Positions 18,111 to 56,977 of a DNA stretch of 64,000 nt are shown here, piece after piece. This DNA is from a virus (Duplodnaviria; Caudoviricetes). A program made the position numbers and the translations under genes. The notes beneath the pieces are model-generated. The model saw only the letters and a program-made list of their open reading frames with translations, was not told where the DNA came from and did not search any database. Numbering within the stretch: the stretch's first letter is position 1; every line of letters begins with the position of its first letter. The DNA is taken from positions 1 to 64,000 of IMG/VR virus record IMGVR_UViG_3300037484_000333; one strand, given 5' to 3'.

Positions 18111-21100
18111 TTGCATATAAGGTTAACCACAGCCGGTGGACGCCTTCTAGCAAAGCTAGGCTGCACTGACCAATTAGTCTCGGCCGGTGGTGTTCTATAT
18201 GATTCACTACCTCTTAGCACTGTCATAGCTCCATCAGCTAGCACATTTTGGCGGGCTTGGTTCGGGCCTGCAGGTGAAGAAGGTAAGATACAGGTTGATG
18301 GTATTACCAACCTTCTAACTGGTACTTACCCTGACAAGACTACCAAGACCATGCCTGCAGGGTTCCGTAACATCCACGGTTGCGAGTACGCATCAGATGT
18401 CGATAGAGTTTTCTTGTGCACCCGTCTTGGAGCTACTGGCAGCACTGGCCCGTACCGCCTAATACGGATAAACCCCGATGACCTCGATGACTACGTTTAC
18501 TATGAGGCGTCTTCTGCAAACTACTGGCGTGCTGACTATCTAATGATAGTGGGTACCAGGGTCTTTGTGTTTTACCAAGACGCAGCCAACCCCACTAAAC
18601 TATTGATTGACGAGTTCGATACTGAGGATGATGCACAACCCCTAACCAAGGTCGCCACTCACGACCTTGGTACAACTTACGGTAGTGCTTGGCAGGCCGA
18701 TACCGACAACACTTATATGTATATCGGAACTGATGCTACCGAACTTTCCGGAACCGGTCACTACATTGTAAAGGTGCAGATCAGTGATATGACGGTGGTA
18801 GATAATGCCCAACTGACTGGTACTTGGGATGCCCACCGAGGAACCGGTAGTGTGCTCTATGACTCGGAAACCGGCTCTGTGTTTATGGGGTGTCAAGGTG
18901 GCGCATTTATCCATAAGGTTAGTGCATCAGACCTGTCTAGTGAAGTAGTCCAGGGATACCCGTTAAAACACCTTAATGGGGAAACGAAGTCCAGTGAACT
19001 TATATCAACTACTGGGTATATATACCTAACTCTAGAGGGTGGGGCAAGTGTCCCCAACTACGTCGAGGGGCACGTTCTCAAAATTAGCAAGACTGACTTG
19101 GCTGACTATGAGGTAATACAGGCCGGGTCTGCGTCTAACAAGTCGGGATGGGTAGGTTTGCCAGAGCCTGACGGTGACTATATCTGGGTCGGATGGGCTG
19201 AAGGGGAGTTTGTACGAATTAAGGTGTCCGATGGTAGCCAGCAACACTTCTGGTTTCCTGAAACCCAGGTAGCAGAAAGTTGTTTTGCAGGCAGCAGAAA
19301 CAAGTGGATACTGGGTACTTGGGACGACCCATGCAAGATAGTTAGAGTAGTCAACCATGTATCGGCAGATAATAGCCAACTCACCAGCTTAGCTCCACGA
19401 TCCTCATGGGTTCCTGTTAGGCTATTCACTCAAAAGGACGGAACTATTACCGCCCTAGAGGCCTATACCGATGGTAGCAATAGTCTCGGCACTGGAGTGA
19501 ACCTTAAAGGGAATACTGCTACCGACTATACAGAGCCCACCACTACCGAGCTTAACACCACTAATTATCCGACTTTAGCTGGAGCCACCGTTGACGCATT
19601 TGGTTGGACCTCCGGCTCACCTAAGTCCATTACAGGGTCGGCAACTGAAGCCGGTGATATCGGTGACTTCTTAGTCTTGCAAGTTAGCCTGGACTCTAAT
19701 GCAGCTGGATGTACTACACCAACTGATACTCTAACCCCCGTTTATACTACCGGCGGAAGCGATATAACCAAGACCGTAACTCTATATACAGAGTCAGAGA
19801 AGATCATATCAGCTGTCACGTCCACTGCTTCAGCTGCTGCCTTGTTGACCTCTGTCGCTGATAATATAGAAGTGCTTGCGGAAGTAGCTACTGTTAATGC
19901 AGCTGCCCTATCTCTAATAGTCGGTATTAGTAAAGCTATAGTTGTACCTGTTTCTGAGGCCGGTGCCACTGCCATTGCTCCTTCGACCTCAGCTGGAGTT
20001 ATCATACTACCAGATGTTGAAGAAGCCGACGCCGTAGTATTCTCGCCTCTGATCTCAATAGGCTTGGCTAGGGCTCCTCCGGCAATTGAGGCTGCAGCCG
20101 TTGCTAATATACCATCTATCTCCACAGAAGCTATCATTAGTGTACCTACTTCTACTGCGTCGTCAGAAGCGCCACCTCCAGAAATTCTGACTTCCGTAAC
20201 CTTTGCTATAGCGTTTGCAGAGGCCCCAATCCCCATCGTTACAACAGGAGCTACAATCACGTCTCCAGTGGCAGAAGCATCTGTAGAGACTTTAGCACCT
20301 GCTATCTCTACTGGAGCCGATGTCATACTTGAGCAACCAGCTATTTCGACAGCTGAGGCCCCTATTCCCACAATTTCGGCTAGTACTACCATATCCTCTC
20401 CAACCGCCACGGCCAGCTCCTCCATTGGTACTACCATCATCGGCATTGGTAAAGCTATTGCACCACCAGTTGCCACATCTAACGGTTCTGCAATTCCGCC
20501 CCTGAGGACTTATGGGGTCTACGTTCAAATCGACGGCGAGTCCAACGACGCCTATGAGTACGAGTTTAACGGCGGAGTCAACGTTGATAACTTCGAGATA
20601 TTAGTCGTATCAGACGCAAGTGCTGAAGACAGGTACTGGGGCGGCCTCCGATTTACTGGTGGAACTTGGCCTTCCTATGGCTCCACCATCACAGCAGCCC
20701 GTATCTCCATTCACATACCGTCTATAGTTGGAGACGACCCTAACTGTGACATCTATGCAGAGGCTTCGGCCAACCCGTCGGCATTCACCACCGCCACTAA
20801 TAACATCAGTGGCCGGACAAAGACCTCAGCCTCAGCTGAGTGGATAGCCAACGGTCTAGGAACAGGTTGGAAAAACTCTCCATCGCTAGTAACAATCATA
20901 CAGGAGCTTGTGGACTCTTACAACATTGAGTCTATAGCCCTAATAATACAACCTAATACTGACGTTAGTAAGTCCCTGATCATAGACGCTTGGGATGAAT
21001 CCTCTCACACCCTTGGGGCCATCCTACACCTGGAGTGGGAGGAGCCCAGCCTCGGTGTAACCTACGCAACCATAGCTACGTCTAGTGCGGCAGCCATAGC

Positions 21101-23828
21101 CCCAAGTATCTCTACGGGAACTACTATAGAGATACCGACAGCTGAGGCTAGCGCCGCTGCAGCCACAGTTGGAATTGGTGGTAGCACACAAATAGATGCG
21201 CCTGCAGCTAGTGCATCATCGGCTCTTATTGCACCGACAGCCTATGGTCGGTATGGGTGCACTATCAGTGTAAGTGCCAATACTGATGACGCTATGGAGC
21301 GAGAGTCGTCTGGAGTTGTTTGGACCGACGACTTCTATATATATGTGCAGTCCGATACTGATCAATCTACTAGGTATTGGGTAGGTCTAAGATTTACTGG
21401 TGGGCCGTTCCCCAATAGAGGGGATACCATTGATACTGCCTACCTGCGAATCAACGTCACTGACGAGATCGATGGTGATAACGCCAACCTAGACATATAT
21501 GCTCAAGACCGTGCTAACCCAACTACCTTCACCACCGATGCATACAACATTACTCGTAGTAGGCCCAGGACTTCTAGCTACACAGAATGGGTATCTGACA
21601 GCCTTGGCACTGGATGGGTTCAGTCACCGTCCATAGTTGACGTCATTCAAGAGCTTGTCAATTCCTATGACATAACATCAGTCGTCCTTACTCTCAGTCC
21701 GAATACCGACGCTACCAAACTCCTAACCCTGTGGGCTCACGATTGGTCTGGTGGTACTTTTGCTGCACAGCTGCATTTGGAATGGACTCCTCTATCGGGA
21801 GGTGTTTCCCCGACTGCAGCAGCAGATGCGGCGGCTCTAATCCCTTCGGTCCACGCTAGTTGCACAATAACTTCTCCAATTGCTACCGCGACTAGTGCTA
21901 CACCCACACCGACAGCCTCAACTGGCGCAGAAATACTATCACCAATTGCCACGGCTTCTGCCAACGCACTAATAATCTCCACTATCGGTGGAGTAAGCAT
22001 ATCCGCCGAGACATCTGAGGCCAGCGCAACCACACCAAACCCGTCTGTAAAGACTGGAGCCACCATATCATCGCCAGTTGCTACGGCCTCTGCTCAGGCT
22101 ATTGGGCCTTCCACATCTTATGGTACAACCATAGAAGCCGAAGTCGCCACCGCCACTGCTAGTGTGTTCAGCAGCGGAGGATCGTCTGTCATCTATCAAG
22201 TAGACCAAAGCTCAGATGACGCCGACGAGTACGCGCAGGCAGACGGGCTTGTAGTACCAGGCGGGACTTCCGTACGGGTAATAGTGGGAATTGCTACGTA
22301 TTGGGGGGGAGTGCGGTTTAGGACTGGGAGTTTCCCAACTCTTGGATCGACGATCACCAGTGCCTACCTAACGATTCAGTGCAGGGACGAGTCTGTTGAT
22401 GATGCAAACTTTGAAATCTATGGGGACGATAGGGAGGACCCGTCGACCTTCACTGACACCAATTACGACATATCGAGCCGGACACTGACGTCGGCCTTTG
22501 TGTCGTGGGTTGAAGATAGTATAGGCGCTGGGTGGGCACAGTCTCCCTCAATCGTCGATGTGATCCAGGAGCTGGTAGACGCCTACAACGTAGCATCCAT
22601 CGCCTTGGTACTGAAGCCTCTGAGCGGGAGCAGGCTAGCTAGGTTCCATTCTTGGGATGAGGCCAGCCACGTCCTCGGAGCAAAGCTATACCTAACGTGG
22701 GAAGGACCTCTCGTATCCACTGGGGTTACGGTTGTTCCGGACGAAGCGGCAGCCAGTGCCGAAGCCCTTGGACCAAATATTGGTGGAAGTCTAACTGTAT
22801 ACGCTACCGTATCTGCATCCAACGCAGATGCCCCAATACCGGTAATCTCAGTTGGTTGCACAATCTCAGTACCAGTTGCTGAGGCGAACGGGGAAGCGTA
22901 TCCCGCATCGACTGCCCTTGGATGGGCTCAAATATTTGCAGAGGTATCCGTTGCAACAGCAGAAACCCCAGCTCCAGAGTTTGGTGGAAGTGCTACAATA
23001 CTGGCAACTGTTGCCCAAGCCTCTGCCGAAATACAACTACCCACAATAGACCTGGCAGTACCAGTCCCAACATCTACGGCCAGTGCGGCCACACCGGCTC
23101 CAACGCTATCGGCTGGAAGTTTAATAACCTCACCAGTAGCCCAATCCTCTGCATCAATACCGACAGTGGCAGTCGCAGCTGGAACGACTATTCCAGTACC
23201 TGTGGCCACTGCAGGTTGTGTAGCCAAGACTTCGACAATCCATACTGGGGTAACCATATCTCCGCCAAGAGCTGTTGCCAATGCTACAGCCCGTACTGCT
23301 ACAGTCGGGGTAGTTGCCCACGTTGGTGTTACAGCCACAGTTGCTACGGCTTCTGCCGAAACTCCTACCCCTATGATCCAGTGGGAAGTATGGACCTTAG
23401 AGTTGGGTACGAGCCTACCGTCTGTTCTAGCCAAACAAGGACTGTGGGGTAAATATCTACCATCGGCTGCTAGGATAGACAACATCGTTGGTCCTACGAT
23501 GGTCAACAACGGGCTACACAGCGGGCTGGTTGTAAGAGTCAGGATTACGAGTACCACTGGCGCACCCACCGTGACTCCAGAAATGCACTACTGGGACTCT
23601 GGTTCGGGCAAGTGGGTAAGCTACATTAACGGCCCACAATATAGTGCCACTGGCGAGTTCGAGTGGATTTTCTCACCGATAGGTATTGCTACCACCAATT
23701 GGTCTCCTATGGGATCAGGTAACATAACCAGAATGATAGCTCCAGTACCTGCTGTATGGAGGGTAGGGTTCTATCACGGCAATACCGATAGTATAACTTA
23801 TAGCGCAATGTATCAGTACATGGCATAA
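18111..23828 (+). CDS. 1905-aa tail fibre/adhesin with propeller-like N-terminus, A/S/T/P spacer repeats and three copies of a globular domain
   Basis: Repeats visible in the translation (DDAxE...YWxGLRF...QELV..Y...AxLxLEW, three times). Confidence 0.65.
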   Translation: MHIRLTTAGGRLLAKLGCTDQLVSAGGVLYDSLPLSTVIAPSASTFWRAWFGPAGEEGKIQVDGITNLLTGTYPDKTTKTMPAGFRNIHGCEYASDVDRVFLCTRLGATGSTGPYRLIRINPDDLDDYVYYEASSANYWRADYLMIVGTRVFVFYQDAANPTKLLIDEFDTEDDAQPLTKVATHDLGTTYGSAWQADTDNTYMYIGTDATELSGTGHYIVKVQISDMTVVDNAQLTGTWDAHRGTGSVLYDSETGSVFMGCQGGAFIHKVSASDLSSEVVQGYPLKHLNGETKSSELISTTGYIYLTLEGGASVPNYVEGHVLKISKTDLADYEVIQAGSASNKSGWVGLPEPDGDYIWVGWAEGEFVRIKVSDGSQQHFWFPETQVAESCFAGSRNKWILGTWDDPCKIVRVVNHVSADNSQLTSLAPRSSWVPVRLFTQKDGTITALEAYTDGSNSLGTGVNLKGNTATDYTEPTTTELNTTNYPTLAGATVDAFGWTSGSPKSITGSATEAGDIGDFLVLQVSLDSNAAGCTTPTDTLTPVYTTGGSDITKTVTLYTESEKIISAVTSTASAAALLTSVADNIEVLAEVATVNAAALSLIVGISKAIVVPVSEAGATAIAPSTSAGVIILPDVEEADAVVFSPLISIGLARAPPAIEAAAVANIPSISTEAIISVPTSTASSEAPPPEILTSVTFAIAFAEAPIPIVTTGATITSPVAEASVETLAPAISTGADVILEQPAISTAEAPIPTISASTTISSPTATASSSIGTTIIGIGKAIAPPVATSNGSAIPPLRTYGVYVQIDGESNDAYEYEFNGGVNVDNFEILVVSDASAEDRYWGGLRFTGGTWPSYGSTITAARISIHIPSIVGDDPNCDIYAEASANPSAFTTATNNISGRTKTSASAEWIANGLGTGWKNSPSLVTIIQELVDSYNIESIALIIQPNTDVSKSLIIDAWDESSHTLGAILHLEWEEPSLGVTYATIATSSAAAIAPSISTGTTIEIPTAEASAAAATVGIGGSTQIDAPAASASSALIAPTAYGRYGCTISVSANTDDAMERESSGVVWTDDFYIYVQSDTDQSTRYWVGLRFTGGPFPNRGDTIDTAYLRINVTDEIDGDNANLDIYAQDRANPTTFTTDAYNITRSRPRTSSYTEWVSDSLGTGWVQSPSIVDVIQELVNSYDITSVVLTLSPNTDATKLLTLWAHDWSGGTFAAQLHLEWTPLSGGVSPTAAADAAALIPSVHASCTITSPIATATSATPTPTASTGAEILSPIATASANALIISTIGGVSISAETSEASATTPNPSVKTGATISSPVATASAQAIGPSTSYGTTIEAEVATATASVFSSGGSSVIYQVDQSSDDADEYAQADGLVVPGGTSVRVIVGIATYWGGVRFRTGSFPTLGSTITSAYLTIQCRDESVDDANFEIYGDDREDPSTFTDTNYDISSRTLTSAFVSWVEDSIGAGWAQSPSIVDVIQELVDAYNVASIALVLKPLSGSRLARFHSWDEASHVLGAKLYLTWEGPLVSTGVTVVPDEAAASAEALGPNIGGSLTVYATVSASNADAPIPVISVGCTISVPVAEANGEAYPASTALGWAQIFAEVSVATAETPAPEFGGSATILATVAQASAEIQLPTIDLAVPVPTSTASAATPAPTLSAGSLITSPVAQSSASIPTVAVAAGTTIPVPVATAGCVAKTSTIHTGVTISPPRAVANATARTATVGVVAHVGVTATVATASAETPTPMIQWEVWTLELGTSLPSVLAKQGLWGKYLPSAARIDNIVGPTMVNNGLHSGLVVRVRITSTTGAPTVTPEMHYWDSGSGKWVSYINGPQYSATGEFEWIFSPIGIATTNWSPMGSGNITRMIAPVPAVWRVGFYHGNTDSITYSAMYQYMA

Positions 23829-25390: not shown

Positions 25391-28300
25391 TTGGCTGACC
25401 TATCTGACGCTGGGACTAAGTATGACCTGGTCCTCGACGACCTAGGTCTTATGCTAGCTGGCCTTATGACAAGGGTTGAGGTTACCAACCTCATGCCCAG
25501 GGTCTCTATGGCCACAGACCAAAAGCAATACCACGACTTCTCAGAGCTGGAGGTATTCGGCCAGCAGAACTTCCATCATGGCAGAGGACAGCTTAACATG
25601 GAAGAGACTGACCGCTTCTATGACAGCTGGAACATGGACTTGCGGTTTCCTGGTAAAGCCTTTCCAGCCCTCGCTCCTACAGAGTCAGGAGACCTAGCCG
25701 GTGCTATTAACGATATGGTTTATTACGAGCACCACGCTGGTACTGGTAGAGATAGGACCTTGTTTGCAGTGGCAGAGACTGGTGCTGCTACCACCACCAA
25801 TACTATTACCGCCAGTGCTGATGACGTTGAGGAGGGAAGTGACACCACCTACGACGCCACATCTACCACTGCTAAGGTGGGGGCATACCCAGCTGCTGTT
25901 ACAGTTAACATCCCTATCGACTCTGGAGCCTACGATGCGTATCAGATATATTACCAGCTAGCTTACACCGAGTATCCAACAGGTAGTAACCTAAGAGTAG
26001 GCACCGACTACTCTCCATATGGATCGGCTAAACAAAGATCATACCTCAGCTTCCCAACTGGTGATAGTTTGCCTGATGGTGTGACGATTACTTCTGCCTC
26101 ACTGTTCTTCTACCTAGAAAACAATTATACTAACACGAACTTCAACCTTAGGGTTCGTAAGCACCCTGGATGGACACCAACACTAGCAGACGATGACTGG
26201 AGGACTGATGGGCACCAACTAAACGCCGATTGGAGTACTGTTCAACTAACCAGCGGGTGGCACGAGATATCTCTAAATGCCAGCCCATCCTATCTGACTG
26301 ACATCAGTTCTACAGCCAGGACTGAGCTTTGTTTAAGTAGCGATAGGGAGGAGACAGGGGCTACCGTAACCCACGATGAGTACTTCTCCATGTACTCTTA
26401 CGAGTATGGCGATCACTCCAGGGCTCCATACTTGAGGGTTACCTATACTTCAGGACTTGGTAGCTTCGACATGGGATTGAGGTTCCAAAGCGTGGCAATA
26501 CCTAATGCTGCCAACCCTACCTCCGCTAAGATAACGGTGAAGGTTAGTGAGGTAATAGCCTCCACCGCCGTAAGGATTTATGGGTTGATGGAATCAGCCG
26601 GACAAGCTTCGTTGGATGCATTTAGCTCGTCTACTGATAGGCCGTCACAAAAGCTTAAAACCGCCAGCTACGTGGCGTGGACTGTATCTACTAGTGGAGT
26701 TCAAGATACACCAGACTTATCCACTGTGGTCAATGAGATAGTAGATAAGGCTACTTGGGCTTCTAACAGCCATATGGGATTTGTGTTCTTAGACCAGGGT
26801 AATGCCGAAAACCATTACTGTAAGATAGTTACCTATGATGGAGACCCAACTAACGATGCCGTTCTCACCGTAGACTATACCGGTAGTGGGGCCAATAAGA
26901 TTTACTACCTCCACTCCAGTACTTCCGTGTGGACTGACGAAGATGCGACACCTGGAACTACGGGTCTAGCTACTAGTGGTGGAGGTGGATCAGACGTTGA
27001 GGTCTTTAATCATATGCTGGTAGTGGCCCAACATAACACAGCTAATGCCAGGAAGTATAGGCCAGGGGACACTCCTGCGTGGGACGACCTGGGAGTTAAG
27101 GCCAAGTTCTTCAAGACCCATGACGGCTGCCTATGGCGGGCTACCTACAACCCTACCGAAACGCTGGGAGTGCAGTCACCAAGGTGGGAAGTCCACTATT
27201 CTGCCAATGCCGATGCCGACACACCCACATGGTCTGAGATAACCTTGCTACGATCTCCAACACCCATAACAGGTCTAGACTCATATTCCAACCTCCTTAC
27301 CGTCCACTATGAAGATGGTATGTGGCAGGTTGAGAAGGACCCGCAAGGGAGCTATAGAGCCTTCAGGCCTATCAACCAAACGCCGGTAAGAGATGTGTAT
27401 AATGGTAGAGCCCATGTTGTATTCAAAGAACGTTACTACTATTCAGAGCGGCATGGCATGGTTGAATACGATGGTAATGGTATTCAGTATATGGGGCCTG
27501 ATAGAGCAGACATAGACCCTGAGTTGGACCCTAATAGCATGAGCCTTGTGGCTTCAAATAGGGGGCCAATCATAGGCCTGACTCAAGATGGGGAGTTCAT
27601 GTGGGCATTGACCTACTCTCCATATACCTATACCCCCAACCAGAATGTGTTGGTGTTTAACAGCCAGGGGTGGAGTCACTATGCTTCAGGTCCTTCTGGT
27701 ACAGCCTCTAACAATGGTGTCATACACTACCAAGCTAGGATAATTGCTTCATCTAATCCTAAGCTTAATAGCTATGATACCCTATGGTTTACTGCAGGGT
27801 CCAAGATATACTATATAGCGTTTGACCCATACTTCAGGGACCCGTCAGCCTACGACGCAGTCAATGGTAGTGCCTTCCAAACCTCCTGTAAACTGAAGAC
27901 CAGTTGGCACGGCCCACTACCTATAGTACCTAAAAACTGGATGCGGCTACTGGTTGACTGGACAAGGGTAGAGGGCATAGTATCCTCCCTGTCCGCTACG
28001 TTCATAAACGATGGTGGTAATGGGCTGGCCCTCCCCACCATATACTCATCTGGGTTGTTAGAAACTAACATACCATTTGGAAACCTGAGTTTGGAGGGGG
28101 TAGTTGGTAGGCGTGCTAGGTGCATATTCACACTTACTACCGCTGCTTCTACCTACAGCCGTCCACCTATGTTTAACGGTTACAACTACCGGTATGCTTA
28201 TAGACCGTCTCCTAGGTTGGGGTGGACTATACCAGCAGCTGTGTACGCTGAGCAAGACCTGTTGGATAGGACTAAGGAGTCAGTGGCTACACTAACCACC

Positions 28301-29023
28301 AGAAGGAAGCTACAGCAGCTGGCTGGGCAATCGCCCCTTAAGTTTAATGATGGCAGCCCGCCAATATCTGCCTTCAATGAGCTGTATAACCCCAGCTTTG
28401 AAGGGCCGTTTACTGGTACCACCCCTCAGTACTGGTCAGAGTTTAACGGACCAATAGGTGGGGAGATGTCATACCTGAAAGCTCCTGTATCTAACCCTGG
28501 TGGATACTCCTGGAGTTTGACCTTCGGGAATTCCTGTGGACTAAGAACCACCCAGACATTCTCTCTTAGCCCAGGTGTCGGATGTAGAGCCTCAGTTTGG
28601 GGAATGTCCTCTAGCTCGACCGACCAAGTAGGTGTGGAGATAAGAATATCATCTACTAACGTCTTAGTGGCTAGTAACTACACCAGTGGTGTTGGGTGGG
28701 TCAGGGCGTCTGTATCCTATAACCCTTCGGCAGCTGAGACCGTCTACATGGCGGTTGTTAAGACTACCGCATCAATGACCCGTACTTACTTTGATTGTGC
28801 GGAACTTATACTGGATAAGGATTACCCGCTAACGGAGTACTTGGATGGCGAGCAGCCAAGGTGTGCGTGGACGGGAGTTCCACATGCCTCAAGGTCTGAG
28901 AGACGAGGGTACTGGTTGGTATATATAACAGGTCTGACCGAGGCTAACAGATTTGGTTCAGAGACGGCTGCTGGTACTGAGACCTGGGGTTCGCAAGTCA
29001 CCCTAGCCTTGAGGGAAGTCTAG
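25391..29023 (+). CDS. Tail protein (nozzle/stabilisation-like) with inserted DNRLRE-like domains
   Basis: Follows the adaptor; N-terminal QQNFHHGRGQ segment, propeller-like middle, inserted RSYLSF...ITSASL...APYLRVTY domain. Confidence 0.6.
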   Translation: MADLSDAGTKYDLVLDDLGLMLAGLMTRVEVTNLMPRVSMATDQKQYHDFSELEVFGQQNFHHGRGQLNMEETDRFYDSWNMDLRFPGKAFPALAPTESGDLAGAINDMVYYEHHAGTGRDRTLFAVAETGAATTTNTITASADDVEEGSDTTYDATSTTAKVGAYPAAVTVNIPIDSGAYDAYQIYYQLAYTEYPTGSNLRVGTDYSPYGSAKQRSYLSFPTGDSLPDGVTITSASLFFYLENNYTNTNFNLRVRKHPGWTPTLADDDWRTDGHQLNADWSTVQLTSGWHEISLNASPSYLTDISSTARTELCLSSDREETGATVTHDEYFSMYSYEYGDHSRAPYLRVTYTSGLGSFDMGLRFQSVAIPNAANPTSAKITVKVSEVIASTAVRIYGLMESAGQASLDAFSSSTDRPSQKLKTASYVAWTVSTSGVQDTPDLSTVVNEIVDKATWASNSHMGFVFLDQGNAENHYCKIVTYDGDPTNDAVLTVDYTGSGANKIYYLHSSTSVWTDEDATPGTTGLATSGGGGSDVEVFNHMLVVAQHNTANARKYRPGDTPAWDDLGVKAKFFKTHDGCLWRATYNPTETLGVQSPRWEVHYSANADADTPTWSEITLLRSPTPITGLDSYSNLLTVHYEDGMWQVEKDPQGSYRAFRPINQTPVRDVYNGRAHVVFKERYYYSERHGMVEYDGNGIQYMGPDRADIDPELDPNSMSLVASNRGPIIGLTQDGEFMWALTYSPYTYTPNQNVLVFNSQGWSHYASGPSGTASNNGVIHYQARIIASSNPKLNSYDTLWFTAGSKIYYIAFDPYFRDPSAYDAVNGSAFQTSCKLKTSWHGPLPIVPKNWMRLLVDWTRVEGIVSSLSATFINDGGNGLALPTIYSSGLLETNIPFGNLSLEGVVGRRARCIFTLTTAASTYSRPPMFNGYNYRYAYRPSPRLGWTIPAAVYAEQDLLDRTKESVATLTTRRKLQQLAGQSPLKFNDGSPPISAFNELYNPSFEGPFTGTTPQYWSEFNGPIGGEMSYLKAPVSNPGGYSWSLTFGNSCGLRTTQTFSLSPGVGCRASVWGMSSSSTDQVGVEIRISSTNVLVASNYTSGVGWVRASVSYNPSAAETVYMAVVKTTASMTRTYFDCAELILDKDYPLTEYLDGEQPRCAWTGVPHASRSERRGYWLVYITGLTEANRFGSETAAGTETWGSQVTLALREV

Positions 29024-47753: not shown

Positions 47754-48377
47754 CTATCTAGGCCAGCAGGACCACTCCCATTGCCGACCTACACTAACAA
47801 ACCACGCTGCCGCTTCCCAAGCCACTGTCCTGTTACATGGGTCGGCAGCGGCAAAGGGTGTGGTAGCCCAGGTGCTCGGCATAAATTGAAATGGACCTAA
47901 CTCACCTGAGCTACCTACCTTACATTCCTCATATTGGTGGCGGCTCTCGCACCACTCGACATACCATAGGGTGTCAAGAAACTGTTCTACATTATACTTA
48001 GAAACCGCAACTTGCGCTAATCTTGGGGGAGTCTCCCCGTTGTTCGGGATTGGATGTTGTCCTCCCACCCCTGAAGGTACCCCGCCTTGTACCACTCCTT
48101 CAGGACTTCCTCCAACTTCTCCCTGTCCTTGTACCACGGTAGCGGGTTCAGCCGACGCCACCATAATGCTATCACTTGCGGCAATGAGATCAACTGTCGT
48201 AAGAGGCACATGGTTTATACTCCGAACAAGATCAAAAGGTTGAGCCATAAGAACACTGCGATCAACTTCGTTAAGAAGTCTATCATAGTCCTCCCTACTA
48301 TCTACCTGCAGGCTAACCGCCGAACACCCTATAGCTATGGCTATGAGTATTGTGGCTATCAGCGGTAGGAGCCTCAG
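47754..48377 (-). CDS. Secreted/lipoprotein lysozyme-like (SLT/Rpf-type) transglycosylase, apparent CTG start
   Basis: WCES catalytic Glu and GPFQFMPSTW; the upstream extension gives signal peptide MRLLPLIATILIAIAIGC; GGAGG 7 nt before a CTG that overlaps the upstream TGA. Confidence 0.75.
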   Translation of the reverse strand: MRLLPLIATILIAIAIGCSAVSLQVDSREDYDRLLNEVDRSVLMAQPFDLVRSINHVPLTTVDLIAASDSIMVASAEPATVVQGQGEVGGSPEGVVQGGVPSGVGGQHPIPNNGETPPRLAQVAVSKYNVEQFLDTLWYVEWCESRHQYEECKVGSSGELGPFQFMPSTWATTPFAAADPCNRTVAWEAAAWFVSVGRQWEWSCWPR

Positions 48378-48556
48378 GCTCGTTCCTCCACTGTTAGGTT
48401 CTTCTTCACTGCTTGGAAACCTATCTGAATGAGGTTAGCTTTGCCACACTTGATACACTCGAAGTCTTCGACACCACTAGACTCAGCGTACCAGACTTCT
48501 CTATTCAGTTCCCCGCAGTAAGCGCACTCCAAGGCTAGTACAAACCTATCTCCCAT
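48374..48556 (-). CDS. Zn-ribbon protein
   Basis: CAYC...CIKC. Confidence 0.6.
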   Translation of the reverse strand: MGDRFVLALECAYCGELNREVWYAESSGVEDFECIKCGKANLIQIGFQAVKKNLTVEERA

Positions 48557-48827
48557 TAATTACCTCCTGTAACTCTTTCAACCTTCCCTCTATATCCACC
48601 CACCCACCGCCATACAACCCTTCAAACTTGGCTACCTCTCCACACTTAACACATACTCCCTGGTTTGAACCCTCAGGGAGTACCCAATGGTGGGCAGGTA
48701 AACTATTACAGGGACAACTATCCCTATGACACTTAATGGTATCACACATCGCAGAAGTTCGCATAGTATTCCTATTATAAGGTAATAAGTCCAGTGGTGT
48801 CAAGCCATTTCTGACCTGACACCACAA
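48546..48827 (-). CDS. Cys/His-rich small protein (start uncertain)
   Basis: HHWVLP...CVKCG. Confidence 0.45.
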   Translation of the reverse strand: MWCQVRNGLTPLDLLPYNRNTMRTSAMCDTIKCHRDSCPCNSLPAHHWVLPEGSNQGVCVKCGEVAKFEGLYGGGWVDIEGRLKELQEVINGR

Positions 48828-48864: not shown

Positions 48865-49305
48865 TTAATCGCCTCCGATAATGCGCCTAGTGACGATGAC
48901 GGTGGCTCCATCAGGTGCCTGGTCGTCGAGGTAGGCCTGGCGACTGTTCAGGCGGAGGTCACCATCGGCGTCGAGACCAGCGGCTTCCAAGGCGTCGCCG
49001 ACAGTACCGTTATCCGGAATGGCGAACTCCCTGACTTCTCCACCGACCTCTCCAACCTTCACGACCTTCTGCCCACCACGGGGCTGGGTCATGATCAGCA
49101 CAGAGTCGCCGTTGCTCAGGGGGTGCCGGTCGCTACTGATGCGCTCTTGCTGCCCCGCGTGGGTGACCCGTACCTCATCGTTGCCCCAAGATTCGCTGGC
49201 AGCCGAGAACAGGTCAGCCACCACAGAACCGGGCAATAGGGTATAGTTCTTCCGCTCACCACCGATGCGAGCGATAGCCACGTCGATCGTCGTCTCGTTG
49301 ACCAC
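48865..49305 (-). CDS. Tandem di-ubiquitin-like (beta-grasp) modifier precursor
   Basis: Two ~70-aa ThiS/MoaD-like units ending TQPRGG and TRRIIGG-D; SD AAAGGAG before GTG 49305. Confidence 0.85.
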   Translation of the reverse strand: MVNETTIDVAIARIGGERKNYTLLPGSVVADLFSAASESWGNDEVRVTHAGQQERISSDRHPLSNGDSVLIMTQPRGGQKVVKVGEVGGEVREFAIPDNGTVGDALEAAGLDADGDLRLNSRQAYLDDQAPDGATVIVTRRIIGGD

Positions 49306-49353
49306 GATCCACTCCTTTCTGGTACTTTGCAGTACCAACTAAACTAACAACTA

Positions 49354-49851
49354 CTATTGATGGCAGTTACAACTGCAATTGAAGCCATCTACACAATGGC
49401 AGGGGCAGTCGCAGGTATCGTCGTCGTAGCACCCACACCTCTCACAGGTGGGCTCCTCTTCCTCCTCCTCTTCATCCTCGTCGTCAGTTGGGTTGGGAAG
49501 TTCTCCACGAGGTTCCAGACCATCCGACCGACCACCACCTACTGGGAAGCTGGCTGAGTCTGCGTCAGTTCGATTCCACACCCTCAGCACGTCAAGATGA
49601 CGCAGTAGGGTACCAGTACAGACGTACCGCCCACCCACACTGAGACGGTCACCACTGTATAGGATGCCCAGCCTCTCCAGTATAGTGCTAATCCAGGCGT
49701 CCCGCCAAGGCATGACCAACTCTATAGTGGGCTGGTTCAGGCGCGCCACGTAGACTGTGATCATCCTATCGTCGTTGGGCCTATCGTTAGGCCTGTACTG
49801 CATGGCTGGACGGGCTGCAGTATAAGGTGCAGGATCATTCGTCATTACCAA
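49354..49851 (-). CDS. Ubl-like domain fused to an acidic tract and a Cys10/His2 tail
   Basis: ITVYVARL...ISTILERLG...DRLSV...DVLRVW resembles the Ubl units; then PVGGG, poly-E and CERCGC...CSCNCHQ. Confidence 0.6.
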   Translation of the reverse strand: MVMTNDPAPYTAARPAMQYRPNDRPNDDRMITVYVARLNQPTIELVMPWRDAWISTILERLGILYSGDRLSVGGRYVCTGTLLRHLDVLRVWNRTDADSASFPVGGGRSDGLEPRGELPNPTDDEDEEEEEEEPTCERCGCYDDDTCDCPCHCVDGFNCSCNCHQ

Positions 49852-50515
49852 CTCCCCATGAGTTGACTATGCTGCGAAGGGTCTTGAGATTCTGTATGTA
49901 CTCTCCCCAACACTCCTCCTTCCTAGCGAACGCGGCTATCCTGCTGGTGATAACACCTCCAATCACAAAGGGACAGTAGATCACAGACGAGTTGGTACAT
50001 GGCCTACCGTCCTTACCCTGGTCACCATATAGTGAGCCTTCATACTTGTCTACGTGGTCTGGGTCACAGGGATTGACTGCGTAGACCCTTAAGTCTTCCC
50101 CATCCATACGCCCATCGACGTACAGGGGGTAGTTAGGGTCATACTTCACAGCCTGCCAGATTTCACTCCTGACAGCCATTGAGTCAACCCCAGAGATGAT
50201 GACCCCAGGTCGCAGTTTGGTATCAGGGAACCTCCCATCAACTGCCAGTATGTTGACTGATGATAGATGAGCCAGCTCACGCGCCAACAGAACTACCTTG
50301 AGTTCGCCGACTCCATCTGGTGGGTACAAGACCTGGTTAGGTACGTTGTGGGCCTCTACCCTGTCGAAGTCGATGACCATTAGGTCCTTTACACCCATCT
50401 TGGCGACTGCTAAGGCGGTAGGCGAACCTATGCCACCTGCCCCGACTATGGTGACTGGAAAGTCGAGTAGGTCAACCTGGACTACGTCTTGTTGCCTCGA
50501 ATAGTCTATTGCCAA
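49835..50515 (-). CDS. E1/ThiF-MoeB family adenylating enzyme
   Basis: VGAGGIG, DFDRVEAHNVPNQ, SGVDS, DGRM, candidate catalytic Cys in RPCT. Confidence 0.9.
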   Translation of the reverse strand: MAIDYSRQQDVVQVDLLDFPVTIVGAGGIGSPTALAVAKMGVKDLMVIDFDRVEAHNVPNQVLYPPDGVGELKVVLLARELAHLSSVNILAVDGRFPDTKLRPGVIISGVDSMAVRSEIWQAVKYDPNYPLYVDGRMDGEDLRVYAVNPCDPDHVDKYEGSLYGDQGKDGRPCTNSSVIYCPFVIGGVITSRIAAFARKEECWGEYIQNLKTLRSIVNSWGVGNDE

Positions 50516-50525
50516 GTACTACCTC

Positions 50526-51344
50526 CTAATGTTTGTCAAGGAAGGTCTGAAACGGGTCGTCACTGTCACGTCGCTTACCCTTCTTGCCTTTGTTACGTGG
50601 GTTACCCCGCTTGTAGGCATCGGCCTTGCTAGTTGACCTATCTATGCGGATGACCTCTCCATCCACACAGTTAGCGGCCACTTTGGCTAGCGCAGCCTCC
50701 ACGTCTCTGGCCTTACGGGTATTAGGGTGGAGGCCAGAGCTGTAGTCGTCCTTAGATACGTTAGCCGAAATACTCTTCCCAATCGGGCCAAAAGGGGTTT
50801 GAGGTATTACCACCTTCCGCTCCCTGACCTTCTGCTTGACCTCCTCGGCACACTCCTCGTCCACATCCATTGCGGGGTATAGAACAGTCAGGTCAAACTC
50901 TTCCTCGACGGCAGACGTACCGCCCAGGCATTTGGGTAGCGTGGCTATGCCGTATACCGATCCCTTCCAGTCGTTAGCCTTATTCCCTACCAGGTAGGCG
51001 AACCAAGGAACAGTCTGCCCTACCATTTGTTCCATAGTGGTACGGTCTGTCTGGCTCCAGAAGCAGGCAGTGTGGGCGTGGCTATGCCACCAAAGGCGCA
51101 GCTCAGTAGGGTCACCGCCTTCCTCCATCCACTGCTGGATGTACTCGGCTATTGGAGTGGTATCTAGCTCAGTACCACCTGCACTACACTCCTGGTCAAA
51201 TAGGACGACCTTGGTTATTACTAACCTTCCGTCTATCTCCTTTACGTGGCCGAGGCCAGATACTTCCCCAGTGGCGTGCTTGATGTAGGATCGGAGCCTA
51301 GAGTATGGCTCCAACTCTATGTATACGTTGGCTTTGGTTGCCAA
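50526..51344 (-). CDS. JAB/MPN metalloprotease (deubiquitinase-like)
   Basis: GEVSG Glu; WWHSH...FWSQTD JAMM motif. Confidence 0.85.
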   Translation of the reverse strand: MATKANVYIELEPYSRLRSYIKHATGEVSGLGHVKEIDGRLVITKVVLFDQECSAGGTELDTTPIAEYIQQWMEEGGDPTELRLWWHSHAHTACFWSQTDRTTMEQMVGQTVPWFAYLVGNKANDWKGSVYGIATLPKCLGGTSAVEEEFDLTVLYPAMDVDEECAEEVKQKVRERKVVIPQTPFGPIGKSISANVSKDDYSSGLHPNTRKARDVEAALAKVAANCVDGEVIRIDRSTSKADAYKRGNPRNKGKKGKRRDSDDPFQTFLDKH

Positions 51345-51355
51345 AACTTCGCCTC

Positions 51356-52804
51356 CTATCGAGTGACAGTAGTTACTGTAGTTCCCGCGTCTCCATTATG
51401 ATATACAAACCCTGCTACTCGTTCAATGTCATCCCAACGCAGTGTCGTCCCAGTGTTGGGATCAACCGCCTCCGCAGGTTCGAGAGCAACTAACTCTTCC
51501 AACGCCTCGTCGTAGTCCATGACTGTTGGGGCTTTCCCTTCCTTCTTAGGTTCCACTCCCACAGGATTCCAGTGTGCGCGCAACCTAGTTATGTATATAC
51601 CGTCATGTTCCTTCTCGTTGATGTGGTTGAGGAACTTGACCAGGACTGCCAAGGCGGTAGGAAAGTCCCCCGCGCCTATCAGCTTGGTTACTGGAGTCTG
51701 TAGGTTGCCGAGACAGACGTATGCCCCACCATCATAGACGTGAGGGTGTTGAATGTCGTTGTAGAAGCCTTCACTCGTACCCTTCATCACTTCCTTGGCC
51801 CGCTGGTTTATTATCCTGATGCGGCCATTGGTGCCAATAGTAATACGGAAGGCTCCAAGGTCCCACGTATCGCCGTCAGCCTCAACTATGATAGTGTGCG
51901 TTTCAGCCACCACTGCTGAACCAGCAATGACTACGTTCTTTATACCCTCAACAGCCTTGAGACGGACAAACTCGTCCTTGAGTTCTTCTTCCTTCTTGTC
52001 TGGCTCCTCGTAAGCCCTGAGCTGGCGGATATACTTGGCCTCGTCTTGCATCCTTCCAACTAGGGCTTCTTGGTAGGAAACTATGTCATTACGGGTAGAC
52101 TGCAACTGGCCAACCAAATTCTGTTTCTGAGCCTCATACCCCTTAGTACGAAGTTCGATGTAGAGATTCTCATAGTCAGGAGGTGGAGGTGGAACAGCCA
52201 CTGCCCTGTTTGACGGTAGCTGCCTGAGTAGTTCATGCCACCACCAACCACTAATGCCAACCGCAAATAGGTACAGTACTCTACTATCAATGTAGGCAGC
52301 TACCACCTCACCATCTACCTTGATTAGGTGATAGTCATCGCCCCAGTTCTCAGGGTGGGTATAGGTAGGAGTTGTAGGCCTTCTAACGTTGTCCCGAAGC
52401 CTGTTAACACCCAATCCGGAGTCGACCATCACAGTCCAGCCCCTATGGGTGGACATGACCCCTCTAAAGTCGCTCCTATAGACGTTGAACGGACGTCCAA
52501 AGTATGGAGCCCACAAACCCAGCCAACGACGTATTGTTGGTAGGCTATACCCAACCCACCCTCGACCATGAGCCTGTACTGCATCTGGTATTGTTAAGGC
52601 TACTATACTACGGTTAGTGTTGTATTCAGGCCAATACTCAAGGAGACGCAGACCTAACGACCTCCGAACTGCTGCCAAGTGCCTGTAACTAACGGCAATC
52701 CCTGTGTTGGCCCCTGCCGTCGCAGTCGGTCTATCAGACGGATCACAAGGTATGTCAGGAAGGTCTGCAAGAGTGAAGCCCTCAAGGTAGTAGTAATCAG
52801 CCAT
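51356..52804 (-). CDS. Prokaryotic E2-like conjugating domain with N-terminal domain and coiled coil
   Basis: C-terminal HPHVYDGGAYVCLGN with candidate catalytic Cys (51713-51715); SD GAGGAGG before ATG 52804. Confidence 0.75.
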   Translation of the reverse strand: MADYYYLEGFTLADLPDIPCDPSDRPTATAGANTGIAVSYRHLAAVRRSLGLRLLEYWPEYNTNRSIVALTIPDAVQAHGRGWVGYSLPTIRRWLGLWAPYFGRPFNVYRSDFRGVMSTHRGWTVMVDSGLGVNRLRDNVRRPTTPTYTHPENWGDDYHLIKVDGEVVAAYIDSRVLYLFAVGISGWWWHELLRQLPSNRAVAVPPPPPDYENLYIELRTKGYEAQKQNLVGQLQSTRNDIVSYQEALVGRMQDEAKYIRQLRAYEEPDKKEEELKDEFVRLKAVEGIKNVVIAGSAVVAETHTIIVEADGDTWDLGAFRITIGTNGRIRIINQRAKEVMKGTSEGFYNDIQHPHVYDGGAYVCLGNLQTPVTKLIGAGDFPTALAVLVKFLNHINEKEHDGIYITRLRAHWNPVGVEPKKEGKAPTVMDYDEALEELVALEPAEAVDPNTGTTLRWDDIERVAGFVYHNGDAGTTVTTVTR

Positions 52805-55315: not shown

Positions 55316-56977
55316 CTACTCCTTACTGAAGTCTGAGATCAACTGTGGTGTGGCTGTATCAAACCCTACCACATCCAACATACCAGCGTCATTGGGGTCT
55401 GCCAGTGTGAAGCCGTTGGATGTCATAGCCACAACCACCAGCTTAGCCGGTATCCCAGTCTTCTTGCGGTACAGTTGGAGTGCCTGGAATGGGTGGAGGT
55501 CGCCAGCCCAGGTCTCGTCATCAGTGTAGATCACGAAGGTGTCAACCTCAATACCTTCCTTAGCTGCCCACACCATGGGCAACGCACAGTCAGTTCCACC
55601 AAAGTTCTGGTCACTGGTCTTCTTCATGGCTGATACCAAGGTATCTTTGGCTGTGATGCCGAGGTTCTTGAAGGTTGTAGAGAACCCCATAGTGTAGTAG
55701 TTGGGTTCCGTCCTAGCGGTTACTAATGCCATAGCGGTCGCACCACGTGCTGGTGTCAGACTTGGTATGCCTGCTATTTCACCCCAAGCCATAGAGCCTG
55801 ACACGTCCAGGGCCAGCAATGTACGCTTACCCGTAGGCTCCACATTCCCAAAGGCTAGGTAGAACGCATGGTCTAGGGCGTCTACTATCTGAGGTATAGG
55901 CTTCCACTCCAGCTTCCCGCGCTCACCATGACCTTGGCTGTAAGTACCTAGCGCGGCTAACACAGCTACCGGGTGGATGCGTGCGGCCTTAATAGCCTCT
56001 TGGTTGGTGAGTCGGTCAACCACTATCTTCGCGTCTTCAGACATTGGCTTGAGACAACCATTGGCTGTCATGCGGCCAAGGTTACGAAGAGTGGCCGTCA
56101 TTGGCAGGTTGGGTAGAAGGGCTGACCATACTGCTGGGTGCTTGAGTTCCTCAGTTGGGATCATCTCCCAGGTTACTACCTTGGAGTGGGCGTTGATGAG
56201 CATCTTGGTCGCCGCTTCACCCTTGACCTGTTGCAAGGCCTCAAAGGCTATGATAACCTCAGGCCACTCACTGCCCCACACTTCCTTGTATGTGCTGACC
56301 ACCCCCTTACGGTCAACCGTCCGCAGGCCATACGCTATGCTATCATCCAGGTGTCTGCACGTGACCCAACGATACAATGCGTTGTAGTTGGCCATAGGGG
56401 TAGAAGGGTGAGCAAGACGCAGCAAGTCTCTGTGAGACCACCCACCACGCTGCTGATACTTGCATAGCTGGTAGGCTAGGTCATTGGGGTTATGCATACC
56501 ATACCAGTGTTGGATAGCCTTACGCAGTACGCTACCCCAACCCCTGAGGTTCTTGCAACACTCAGCGAACTGGAAGAGGTGAGTACCTATACGGCAAACG
56601 TGAGGGAGAGCTTCAGAGGCGGCACGCTTGGTTGGAAGGTCACCGAAGCTGATGCACATGGCGAGTGCGAAGATAGCCGGGTCGTTCTTAGGTGCTCGAC
56701 CTGACTGGCTGATCTCAACTATACGGTTGACAGTACGGGGTCCATCAGCCTTGATACAACGCAGTACGGCCTCGGCATTCTCAATTGTGAGCTTTTGGGC
56801 TGATGCGTAGTAGGTTCCACCTTCGGAACCCAGAATGAGGAAGCGGTCTAGCCTGATCCAGTCATCAACGGGGAAGACGTAGCCTCCAGCATCGTTGACG
56901 ACCTGGTCAGTGCGACCTGGTACGGGGGTTGATTGAGGGGTTTGCTTGATGGAGTAGTGCTCGGAGTATAGAGACAA
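55316..56977 (-). CDS. rsr: Ro60/TROVE RNA-binding protein (Rsr-like) with C-terminal vWA
   Basis: N.AGGYVF..DDW.RL.RFLILGSEGGTYY; KYQQRGGWSHRDLLRLAHP; DVSGSM MIDAS; GGTDC; DDETW; VVGFD. Confidence 0.95.
   Translation of the reverse strand: MSLYSEHYSIKQTPQSTPVPGRTDQVVNDAGGYVFPVDDWIRLDRFLILGSEGGTYYASAQKLTIENAEAVLRCIKADGPRTVNRIVEISQSGRAPKNDPAIFALAMCISFGDLPTKRAASEALPHVCRIGTHLFQFAECCKNLRGWGSVLRKAIQHWYGMHNPNDLAYQLCKYQQRGGWSHRDLLRLAHPSTPMANYNALYRWVTCRHLDDSIAYGLRTVDRKGVVSTYKEVWGSEWPEVIIAFEALQQVKGEAATKMLINAHSKVVTWEMIPTEELKHPAVWSALLPNLPMTATLRNLGRMTANGCLKPMSEDAKIVVDRLTNQEAIKAARIHPVAVLAALGTYSQGHGERGKLEWKPIPQIVDALDHAFYLAFGNVEPTGKRTLLALDVSGSMAWGEIAGIPSLTPARGATAMALVTARTEPNYYTMGFSTTFKNLGITAKDTLVSAMKKTSDQNFGGTDCALPMVWAAKEGIEVDTFVIYTDDETWAGDLHPFQALQLYRKKTGIPAKLVVVAMTSNGFTLADPNDAGMLDVVGFDTATPQLISDFSKE

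Follow-up and report, generated by a model that had tools for sequence, protein, structure and literature searches.

Does a tailed phage carry a complete ubiquitin-like (Ubl) protein conjugation pathway of its own? The question is raised by five open reading frames (ORFs) in a stretch of 64,000 nucleotides (hereafter the window), which corresponds to bases 1-64000 of the 72,634-bp tailed-phage record IMGVR_UViG_3300037484_000333, a record with direct terminal repeats. The five ORFs lie on the minus strand, co-oriented and abutting, at 52804-51356, 51344-50526, 50515-49835, 49845-49354 and 49305-48865, and an initial annotation made from the sequence alone had read them as an operon for an E2-like protein, a JAMM protease, a ThiF/MoeB-type E1, a Ubl fusion and a tandem di-Ubl. 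All five ORFs and all of the motifs named for them are present, and every component assignment held in profile and structure tests. We consider it likely, with a probability of about 0.7, that the phage encodes a real E1-to-E2 Ubl conjugation cascade with JAMM maturation, because each of the four enzyme and tag classes was recovered in independent tests of profile or structure and because the predicted catalytic residues (E2 C364, the JAMM E/HxH/S/D, E1 C173 and the Ubl Gly) are conserved columns of their families.

The first component is the E2-like protein (482 residues; 51356..52804, minus strand), which we assigned with a family profile and an AlphaFold2 model. Its variable N-terminal region (approximately residues 1-200) is followed by two long helices paired as a coiled coil (211-283) and by a UBC core (approximately 268-414), the core carrying the motif HPHVYDGGAYVCLGN with H353-P354-H355 and Cys364. 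As a single sequence it gave no Pfam, PHROG, NCBIfam, PADLOC or PDB match, and Pfam likewise returned nothing for ten of its homologues. An exhaustive phmmer search of 1.8 billion representatives retrieved 406 proteins at E ≤1e-3, which have in common approximately residues 225-435. In an alignment of 81 sequences of this family (A2), P354, C364 and G366 are conserved at 90% or more, with the consensus HPHxxxxGxxCxGN; in a local alignment of 87 members, numbered on the longest ORF, H367 is found in 68 and C378 in 82. The A2 profile matched human UBE2L3 in the PDB (E 1.3e-4), with the family sequence 'HPhisddgspClGn' placed on UBE2L3 'HPNIDEKGQVCLPV', so that HP(H) falls on HPN, the third position being His and not Asn, and the Cys falls on the catalytic Cys. 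The family thus has an HPN-type loop followed some ten residues later by the catalytic Cys, as in UBC-type E2 enzymes. The Pfam UQ_con model was found in two of the 81 members (2.9e-5), and a Pfam family of prokaryotic E2s in none of them.

The AlphaFold2 model has a predicted local distance difference test score (pLDDT) above 90 across most of residues 211-420, and shows the long helical pair followed by a core made of a sheet plus helices. The top Foldseek matches of this model are almost all E2 enzymes (best E-value 2.9e-3, probability up to 0.99). Comparison with whole E2 cores in VIA-align gave Z-scores of 6.0-6.7 and root-mean-square deviations (rmsd) of 3.3-4.4 Å over 111-123 aligned residues; for residues 268-414 the values were Z 6.7, rmsd 4.0 Å and 119 residues with UBE2S, and Z 6.6, rmsd 3.7 Å and 115 residues with Ubc13. 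Taken jointly, the model and the sequence profile reveal the UBC alpha/beta core, with its N-terminal helix, four-stranded sheet and C-terminal helices. The initial annotation had singled out the C-terminal part of 51356-52804 as the place where a missing UBC fold would undo its reading; the fold is present there, with the catalytic Cys aligned. We therefore accept this protein as a predicted catalytically competent UBC-fold E2, a prediction that the Z-scores alone would be insufficient to carry.

The next gene (50526..51344, minus strand) encodes a JAMM/MPN+ metallopeptidase of 272 residues, identified by the Prok-JAB model and a family profile, with a JAB domain over approximately residues 1-150 and then a basic C-terminal extension. 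As a single sequence it scores 4.8e-5 with Pfam Prok-JAB (23.7 bits, just below the 25-bit cut-off). Its motifs, GEVSG and HSHAHTACFWSQTD (HxHx7Sx2D), supply E27, H87, S88, H89, S97 and D100, which are invariant in 58 aligned relatives and together form the full E...HxHx7Sx2D motif; in 100 relatives the motif residues are kept at 92-100%. The family profile is closest in the PDB to the Caldiarchaeum Rpn11-like protein (4e-10) and to Rpn11/PSMD14 (5e-9), and also matches CSN5 and Pyrococcus JAMM1 (1.7e-5), in agreement with the protease first proposed for this gene.

The E1 (226 residues; 49835..50515, minus strand) is a minimal ThiF/MoeB-type enzyme, recognised by Pfam ThiF and by its family profile. 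It matches ThiF PF00899 at 6e-20, well above the cut-off (71.9 bits against 28.1), and belongs to a family of short proteins (approximately 215-240 residues) whose invariant columns are G25-A-G-G-I-G30, D49, D51, N57, K73, D111, R116 and C173, the last within the PCT of the RPCT motif. C173 does not vary in 35 relatives, is retained by 158 of 165 and lies 62 residues past D111; it is matched to the crossover-loop Cys of ThiF/UbaA by spacing only, the PDB alignments ending near residue 130. The profile is about equally close to ThiF (1.3e-19), to UBA5 (5e-18) and to the active adenylation domains of UBA6/UBA1 (approximately 5e-17), while NCBIfam gives UbaA at 2.7e-9. Pfam shows no rhodanese domain in this protein, and none of the extra domains of BilD or of canonical E1s is found in it.

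Two proteins carry Ubl domains. The first is the di-Ubl precursor (146 residues; 48865..49305, minus strand), assigned through a family profile and AlphaFold2/Foldseek, in which two beta-grasp domains are arranged head to tail, the first ending in PRGG and the second in IIGG plus a single Asp. With the sequence alone, Pfam, PHROGs, NCBIfam and PADLOC gave nothing but a weak match to Pfam DUF348 (0.01). From 65 sequences of small Ubl genes located up- or downstream in related cassettes we built an alignment (A3), whose profile matched Pyrococcus SAMP2/PF1061 (3e-11), Haloferax SAMP2, TtuB, ThiS and MoaD (3e-11 to 1e-5), and more weakly SUMO and ubiquitin. These alignments always finish on the terminal GG, and the last Gly is invariant in the 65 sequences, so that the family combines the beta-grasp fold and the C-terminal Gly-Gly of ThiS/MoaD/SAMP-type modifiers. 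AlphaFold2 predicted the second domain with pLDDT above 95 and the first less confidently; with both domains, Foldseek found linear di-ubiquitin, ISG15 and polyubiquitin at approximately 1e-6. Domain 1 alone matches the Ubl family with a probability of 95%, its PRGG placed on the family GG.

The two domains have no pairwise similarity by BLASTP, and nonetheless keep the GG at their junction. An internal GG exactly at the domain boundary is found in five of the six di-Ubl forms examined; among other loci, the junction GG is present in the genes of L005, L009-L011, L030 and L090 and absent in L084. Most Ubls of the family, and most of its single-domain members, end in GG or in GG plus one to three residues, which gives the JAMM peptidase an obvious role in maturation. 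We infer that the di-Ubl is also cleaved at its internal GG.

The second tag protein, which we call Ubl-Cys (163 residues; 49354..49845, minus strand), was assigned by hhalign to A3. It contains a Ubl-like domain (approximately residues 24-102), GGG at 103-105, an acidic linker and a Cys-rich tail with ten Cys in the last 32 residues. Residues 24-114 align with A3 at a probability of 79% (E 1.6e-5), with the GGG on the terminal GG of the family, and a local hidden Markov model (HMM) matched at 4e-5; the Ubl fusion first described here thus stands, with a weak match. The single sequence has no Pfam, PHROG, NCBIfam or PADLOC match, no word-based homologues were found, and Atlas scores reach 0.75, below the usable level. 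In eight other loci, nine E2 proteins end in a comparable acidic tail rich in Cys, which indicates that the module is part of the system and has shifted from one partner to another. This recurrent module is a candidate accessory part; as a speculation, it may bind metal and help to pick targets. At two loci a small zinc-ribbon-like ORF (CxC ... CxxC) lies between the E1 and di-Ubl genes (L005:6657-6821; L009, approximately 6670-6836), and may be another form of the module.

The relatives of the tag and of the E1 are also those expected for a quite different process, in which the Ubl would act without an E2, in the manner of SAMP/UbaA or TtuB/TtuC, either as a thiocarboxylate for tRNA or cofactor thiolation or in E2-independent conjugation, the UBC-fold protein being a non-catalytic scaffold. 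The best solved relatives of the Ubl family are SAMP2, TtuB, ThiS and MoaD, the best relative of the E1 is ThiF, with UbaA as its NCBIfam match, and the E1 is minimal, with no domain to recruit an E2. However, the Cys and the HP motif of the E2 are kept in more than 90% of the 81 relatives, the E2 is accompanied by E1, JAB and Ubl genes in 66 loci (see below), the E1 has no rhodanese domain, and no ThiG, MoaE or TtuA-type partner is encoded anywhere in the 72.6-kb record, which extends to the whole record the lack of a sulfur-transfer partner reported for the surroundings of the operon. An E2-independent or sulfur-carrier system is therefore improbable. Thiamine or molybdopterin biosynthesis, the function under which databases annotate phage homologues of this E1, was also considered and rejected, since there is no ThiG, MoaE or TtuA-type gene, yet an E2 and a JAMM are present.

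The arrangement of the five genes is that of a compact transcription unit, in which neighbouring genes are 10-11 nt apart or overlap slightly, and terminator-like sites are absent from the interior of the cassette. Start codons were refined through ribosome-binding sites and homology. For the E2-like protein, the alignment to P0038, which begins at residue 17, supports a start at 52804 (M15 of the longest ORF), and the public gene call of 366 residues is probably too short. Ubl-Cys most likely starts at the ATG at 49845, behind GGGGAG-N6, and the di-Ubl at the GTG at 49305, behind AGGAG-N6, which gives 146 and not 157 residues. We take these ORFs to be real genes and not chance frames, because the E2-like, JAB, E1 and Ubl proteins each have many homologues in conserved synteny, and because their motif residues are conserved columns of the respective families. 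Directly downstream of the di-Ubl gene there is a perfect sigma-70 consensus (TTGACA-18-TATAAT, 12/12) at 48803-48774 on the minus strand, which probably opens the next transcription unit, formed by small Cys-containing ORFs at 48546-48827 and 48374-48556.

By analogy with the established chemistry of the four families, from which all of its steps are drawn, the conjugation cascade would operate as follows. The JAMM peptidase would cut the tag precursors after Gly-Gly, taking off the terminal Asp of the di-Ubl, probably also cutting the internal RGG junction, and possibly cutting Ubl-Cys after its GGG. The ThiF-type E1, expected to be a homodimer, would adenylate the exposed C-terminal Gly and load the tag onto Cys173, from where it would move to Cys364 of the UBC-fold E2, which has an HPH loop in place of the canonical HPN. 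The E2 would then place the tag on lysines of its targets with no need for a separate E3; the cassette has no recognised RING E3, in line with the earlier remark that no obvious E3 is present. Targets would be chosen by the variable N-terminal region of the E2, by its coiled coil or by the Cys-rich module, and the JAMM could also reverse the modification. Transcription of the cassette together with the replication genes would bring about tagging within the infected cell, with host or phage proteins as substrates.

Several points weigh against a full cascade of this kind. The Z-scores of the E2 core (6.0-6.7) are middling and under the caution line of 8 of the alignment tool, the Foldseek E-values for the E2 are weak (3e-3), and its N-terminal 200 or so residues are poorly predicted. 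Canonical E1s recruit the E2 with a ubiquitin-fold or Cys domain, and neither is recognisable in the 226-residue E1, which leaves the hand-over from E1 to E2 unexplained. Ubl-Cys is an orphan protein that resembles Ubls no more than weakly (probability 79%), and an intact, ISG15-like tandem tag is equally compatible with the fold of the di-Ubl.

The conservation of the set of genes across other genomes bears directly on the cascade. We analysed the best 80 of 208 IMG/VR relatives found by E1 alignment as viral loci, and the first 32 of 195 GTDB matches as loci from metagenome-assembled genomes (MAGs), the remainder being ordinary ThiF/MoeB, and scored cassette composition by iterated local HMMs on the neighbouring genes. 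All four core genes occur together in 43/80 of the IMG/VR loci and 23/32 of the MAG loci. Their synteny is kept in at least five different gene orders, which points to the set, and not any single arrangement, as the object of selection. The JAMM is the most constant companion of the E1, and in 19/80 viral loci JAB and E1 are the only members within reach. Nine loci without a Ubl HMM match have a protein of 147 residues (L066:2636-3079 and relatives) with a Ubl-like N-terminal part ending in KMKSG and a Lys/Ala-rich tail, and these 'incomplete' JAB-E1 cassettes may carry a divergent tag. At two loci the JAB gene is followed by a second E1-like gene of 192 residues (L008:10185-10763; L014:9110-9688), which in the E1 tree is a deep branch by itself.

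The constancy of the JAMM beside the E1, and the viral loci with these two genes only, such as that of Flavobacterium phage FpV4, would suit a counter-defence function, in which the system, or the JAMM alone, strips or pre-empts host Ubl modifications (Bil; Cap2 of CBASS, cyclic oligonucleotide-based antiphage signalling) or inactivates host defence proteins by tagging them. The solved structures closest to this peptidase are Rpn11/CSN5-like JAMMs, which are known to act as isopeptidases. The stripping of host tags would need no full set of tag, E1 and E2, and we regard counter-defence as very unlikely.

The E2 varies outside its core. Its length ranges from approximately 190 to 830 residues around a constant core, which hints that the termini carry specificity; two or three tandem E2 paralogues are present per cassette in L004, L017, L085, L092 and L096, and L086 has two complete cassettes in tandem. 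The family is also present in cellular genomes, of the candidate phyla radiation (CPR) and Chloroflexi. In a Saccharimonadales MAG (L105) the cassette lies on a 367-kb contig between genes for the Der GTPase, PhoH/PIN and topoisomerase I, and is clearly chromosomal, and the four-gene cassette is also found in the CPR chromosomes of L099 and L092, so that these reduced bacteria may own a cellular Ubl-E2 system of this family. In a FastTree phylogeny, which is descriptive and without support values, the cassette E1s stand apart from ordinary ThiF/MoeB. Copies from viruses and from cells are intermingled in it, and there are clades made up of viral sequences only and others of Saccharibacteria only.

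Cultured phages yielded only partial versions. FpV4 (L162, NC_041872.1) and its kin have JAB-E1, the 423-residue 'hypothetical protein' beside the E1 of FpV4 bearing the full JAMM motif (HSHNTMAVFFSGTD). The Xanthomonas jumbo phage PhiXhv-12 (L163) has a Ubl ending in GG, an E2-like protein and an E1, and a regular-expression search within 6 kb found neither a JAMM motif nor an HP[HN]..C.G motif; it is a partial, divergent relative only. The E1s of both phages are annotated as 'thiamine biosynthesis protein (ThiF)', which is probably wrong. Searches of GenBank phages with the cassette at the nucleotide level, and by tblastn with the E2 domain and the JAB protein, gave no match. Single-protein scans of IMG/VR with the E2 and the E1 also gave none, the relatives being reached only by E1 alignment, and two metagenome scans for P0002 and P0003, E1 relatives of 74% identity, returned no match.

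The genomic setting of the cassette is that of a phage replication region. A replication block on the minus strand, from approximately 32 to 57 kb, encodes PolA (4.6e-78), a helicase (7.8e-69), an exonuclease and Sak4-like, ribonucleotide-reductase-like and Ro60-like proteins, and the five-gene Ubl cassette sits within it. The term 'early' that the initial annotation applied to this region is deduced from its position in the block. The phage context itself is well marked, by the direct terminal repeats, the head protein (E 3.6e-61), PolA, helicase, Sak4 and exonuclease. The cassette is thus phage-borne, as originally described, but it is not a one-off, being part of a large family found on many phage contigs and in cellular genomes.

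This setting matters for a further explanation, which accepts the cascade as real and takes it for defence cargo, tagging the structural proteins of competing phages in a Bil-like manner (superinfection exclusion) and not serving the infection programme of the phage itself. Bil, which has the same four part types, protects cells by tagging a phage tail protein (PMC11601596), the family is shared with cellular genomes and its viral and cellular E1 copies interleave (in a tree without support values), and the E2 paralogues and variable E2 termini would suit an arms race. On the other hand, the cassette lies within the replication block of a terminal-repeat phage and not in a moron-like or lysogeny module, no integrase was seen, the E1 tree has large purely viral clades, and the PADLOC Bil models fail but for a weak partial match to BilD. 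None of these points is decisive, and we consider defence cargo unlikely.

The Ro60-like gene encodes a Ro60/TROVE-like RNA-binding protein (55316-56977, minus strand; phrog_850, 6.6e-90), located 2.5 kb upstream of the cassette and in the same orientation. Of the 160 other loci, none has a Ro60 homologue within 6 kb of its cassette, and a functional tie between the two, suggested by proximity alone, is unproven. The structural arm, on the plus strand, includes the major head protein (13514-14758; phrog_1328, E 3.6e-61). The phrog_1328 match begins at residue 20 of the frame open from 13514, and the first ATG, GTG or TTG occurs only at 14198; since the match precedes it, the capsid gene seems to start at a non-canonical codon. 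The same arm has three giant ORFs, of 2831 (4195-12690), 1905 (18111-23828) and 1210 residues (25391-29023). The 1905-residue ORF has a borderline PHROG match of unknown function (8.7e-4), the other two have no PHROG match, and a PDB sequence search with the 2831- and 1905-residue ORFs gave none. The record length and terminal repeats are reminiscent of N4-like phages.

A broader interpretation would be that tailed phages and some CPR bacteria own an independent eukaryote-like ubiquitin toolkit, with a canonical-type UBC E2, an Rpn11-like JAMM and head-to-tail precursors in the style of polyubiquitin, with one residue as a cap, and that phages use it in infection to tag host or viral proteins. 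We put this forward tentatively, judging it somewhat short of an even chance. If true, prokaryotic viruses would for the first time be seen to encode a complete Ubl cascade, one that mirrors the Bil defence of bacteria. Ubl conjugation in prokaryotes is now seen as a weapon of the cell against phages (Bil, CBASS and probably Bub), and a full and widespread phage-borne set would show that viruses use it as well, and would make one ask what advantage protein tagging brings to a phage. The components are small separate proteins, so that reconstitution of the pathway should be easy.

Among the literature searched, with subscription journals outside its scope, we found no description of a full phage-borne Ubl cassette. 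Bacterial Ubl-JAB-E1-E2 operons on mobile elements were described by Iyer et al. in 2006, who reported for phages only a tail-assembly Ubl/JAB pair (PMC1779556), and a study of Asgard viruses lists three ThiF-like genes only. The initial annotation placed the cassette against the background of the Bil and Bub systems, and what stands of this is that its part types are those of Bil, while membership in the Bil or Bub families is not borne out by PADLOC, by E1 architecture or by the catalytic Cys. As in Bil, one operon combines a single or tandem beta-grasp Ubl, a UBC-fold E2 with a catalytic Cys, a JAB/JAMM and an E1, with no E3, the E2 of Bil being thought to select its targets directly (PMC11601596; PMC10557695). 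In contrast, the BilD E1 has three domains (PMC11601596), whereas the cassette E1 is a single ThiF-like domain of 226 residues, and Bil is carried by bacteria against phages, whereas the cassette is carried by a phage. The PADLOC BilD model gives a weak, partial match to this E1 (4.6e-5, profile positions 213-319 of 453), and at E ≤1 the E2 and both Ubl proteins have no PADLOC match and the JAB protein matches only generic JAB models.

Bub operons also encode E1, E2, JAB and Ubls with one to three beta-grasp domains, and some of their precursors need JAB cleavage to yield a functional Ubl (PMC11601596). Bub/6E differs in that its E1 and E2 lack the catalytic Cys, oxyesters are formed and a DUF6527 serine protease is present, whereas in the cassette the Cys is conserved in both enzymes, and Pfam found no DUF6527 in the five cassette proteins or the five neighbouring ORFs scanned. 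In type II CBASS, Cap2-Cap3 is built on an E1-E2 fusion that tags a CD-NTase; in the cassette the two enzymes are not fused, the JAB gene lying between the genes for E1 and E2. The PADLOC 'E1-E2' models cover no more than the Rossmann part of the cassette E1, and Pfam found no CD-NTase in the cassette or in the neighbours scanned. Eukaryotic polyubiquitin genes (UBI4/UBB/UBC) consist of head-to-tail units each ending in GG, with one extra residue capping the last. The same GG pattern is found in the di-Ubl of the window and in those of L005, L009-L011, L030 and L090, although the di-Ubl of the window has only two units, which are strongly diverged from each other and belong to the ThiS/SAMP2 sequence family.

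The archaeal sampylation system (SAMP1-3, UbaA, HvJAMM1/Pyrococcus SAMP2-JAMM1) and the Thermus TtuB/TtuC pair resemble the cassette in the tag, the minimal MoeB/ThiF E1 and the JAMM companion. They differ from it in having no E2 and in doubling as sulfur carriers, whereas the cassette has a conserved UBC-fold E2 and its genome no sulfur-acceptor enzymes. The operon of Caldiarchaeum subterraneum (Ub, E1, E2, a small RING E3 and an Rpn11-like protein; PMC3082918, PMC5654768) is likewise compact and made of eukaryote-type parts. Its Rpn11-like protein is the solved structure that the phage JAMM family matches best (4e-10), and among the Pfam models tested the one closest to the cassette E2 family is UQ_con, that of the canonical E2s. 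Compared with this operon, the cassette has no recognised RING E3, its tag is ThiS/SAMP2-like and not ubiquitin proper, its E1 is shorter and its carrier is a phage. The cassette is a new, widespread variant of the prokaryotic Ubl conjugation systems, carried by phages and shared with some bacteria. It bears on the origins of ubiquitin signalling, as it combines a ThiS/SAMP2-like tag and a minimal ThiF E1 with an E2 and a JAMM that find their closest solved structures in eukaryotes or archaea (UBE2L3, Rpn11), and as the di-Ubl genes of the family are organised in the manner of polyubiquitin. By sequence comparison, it is nearest to archaeal sampylation in its tag and E1, and nearest to the eukaryote-like machinery of the Caldiarchaeum operon in its E2 and JAMM.

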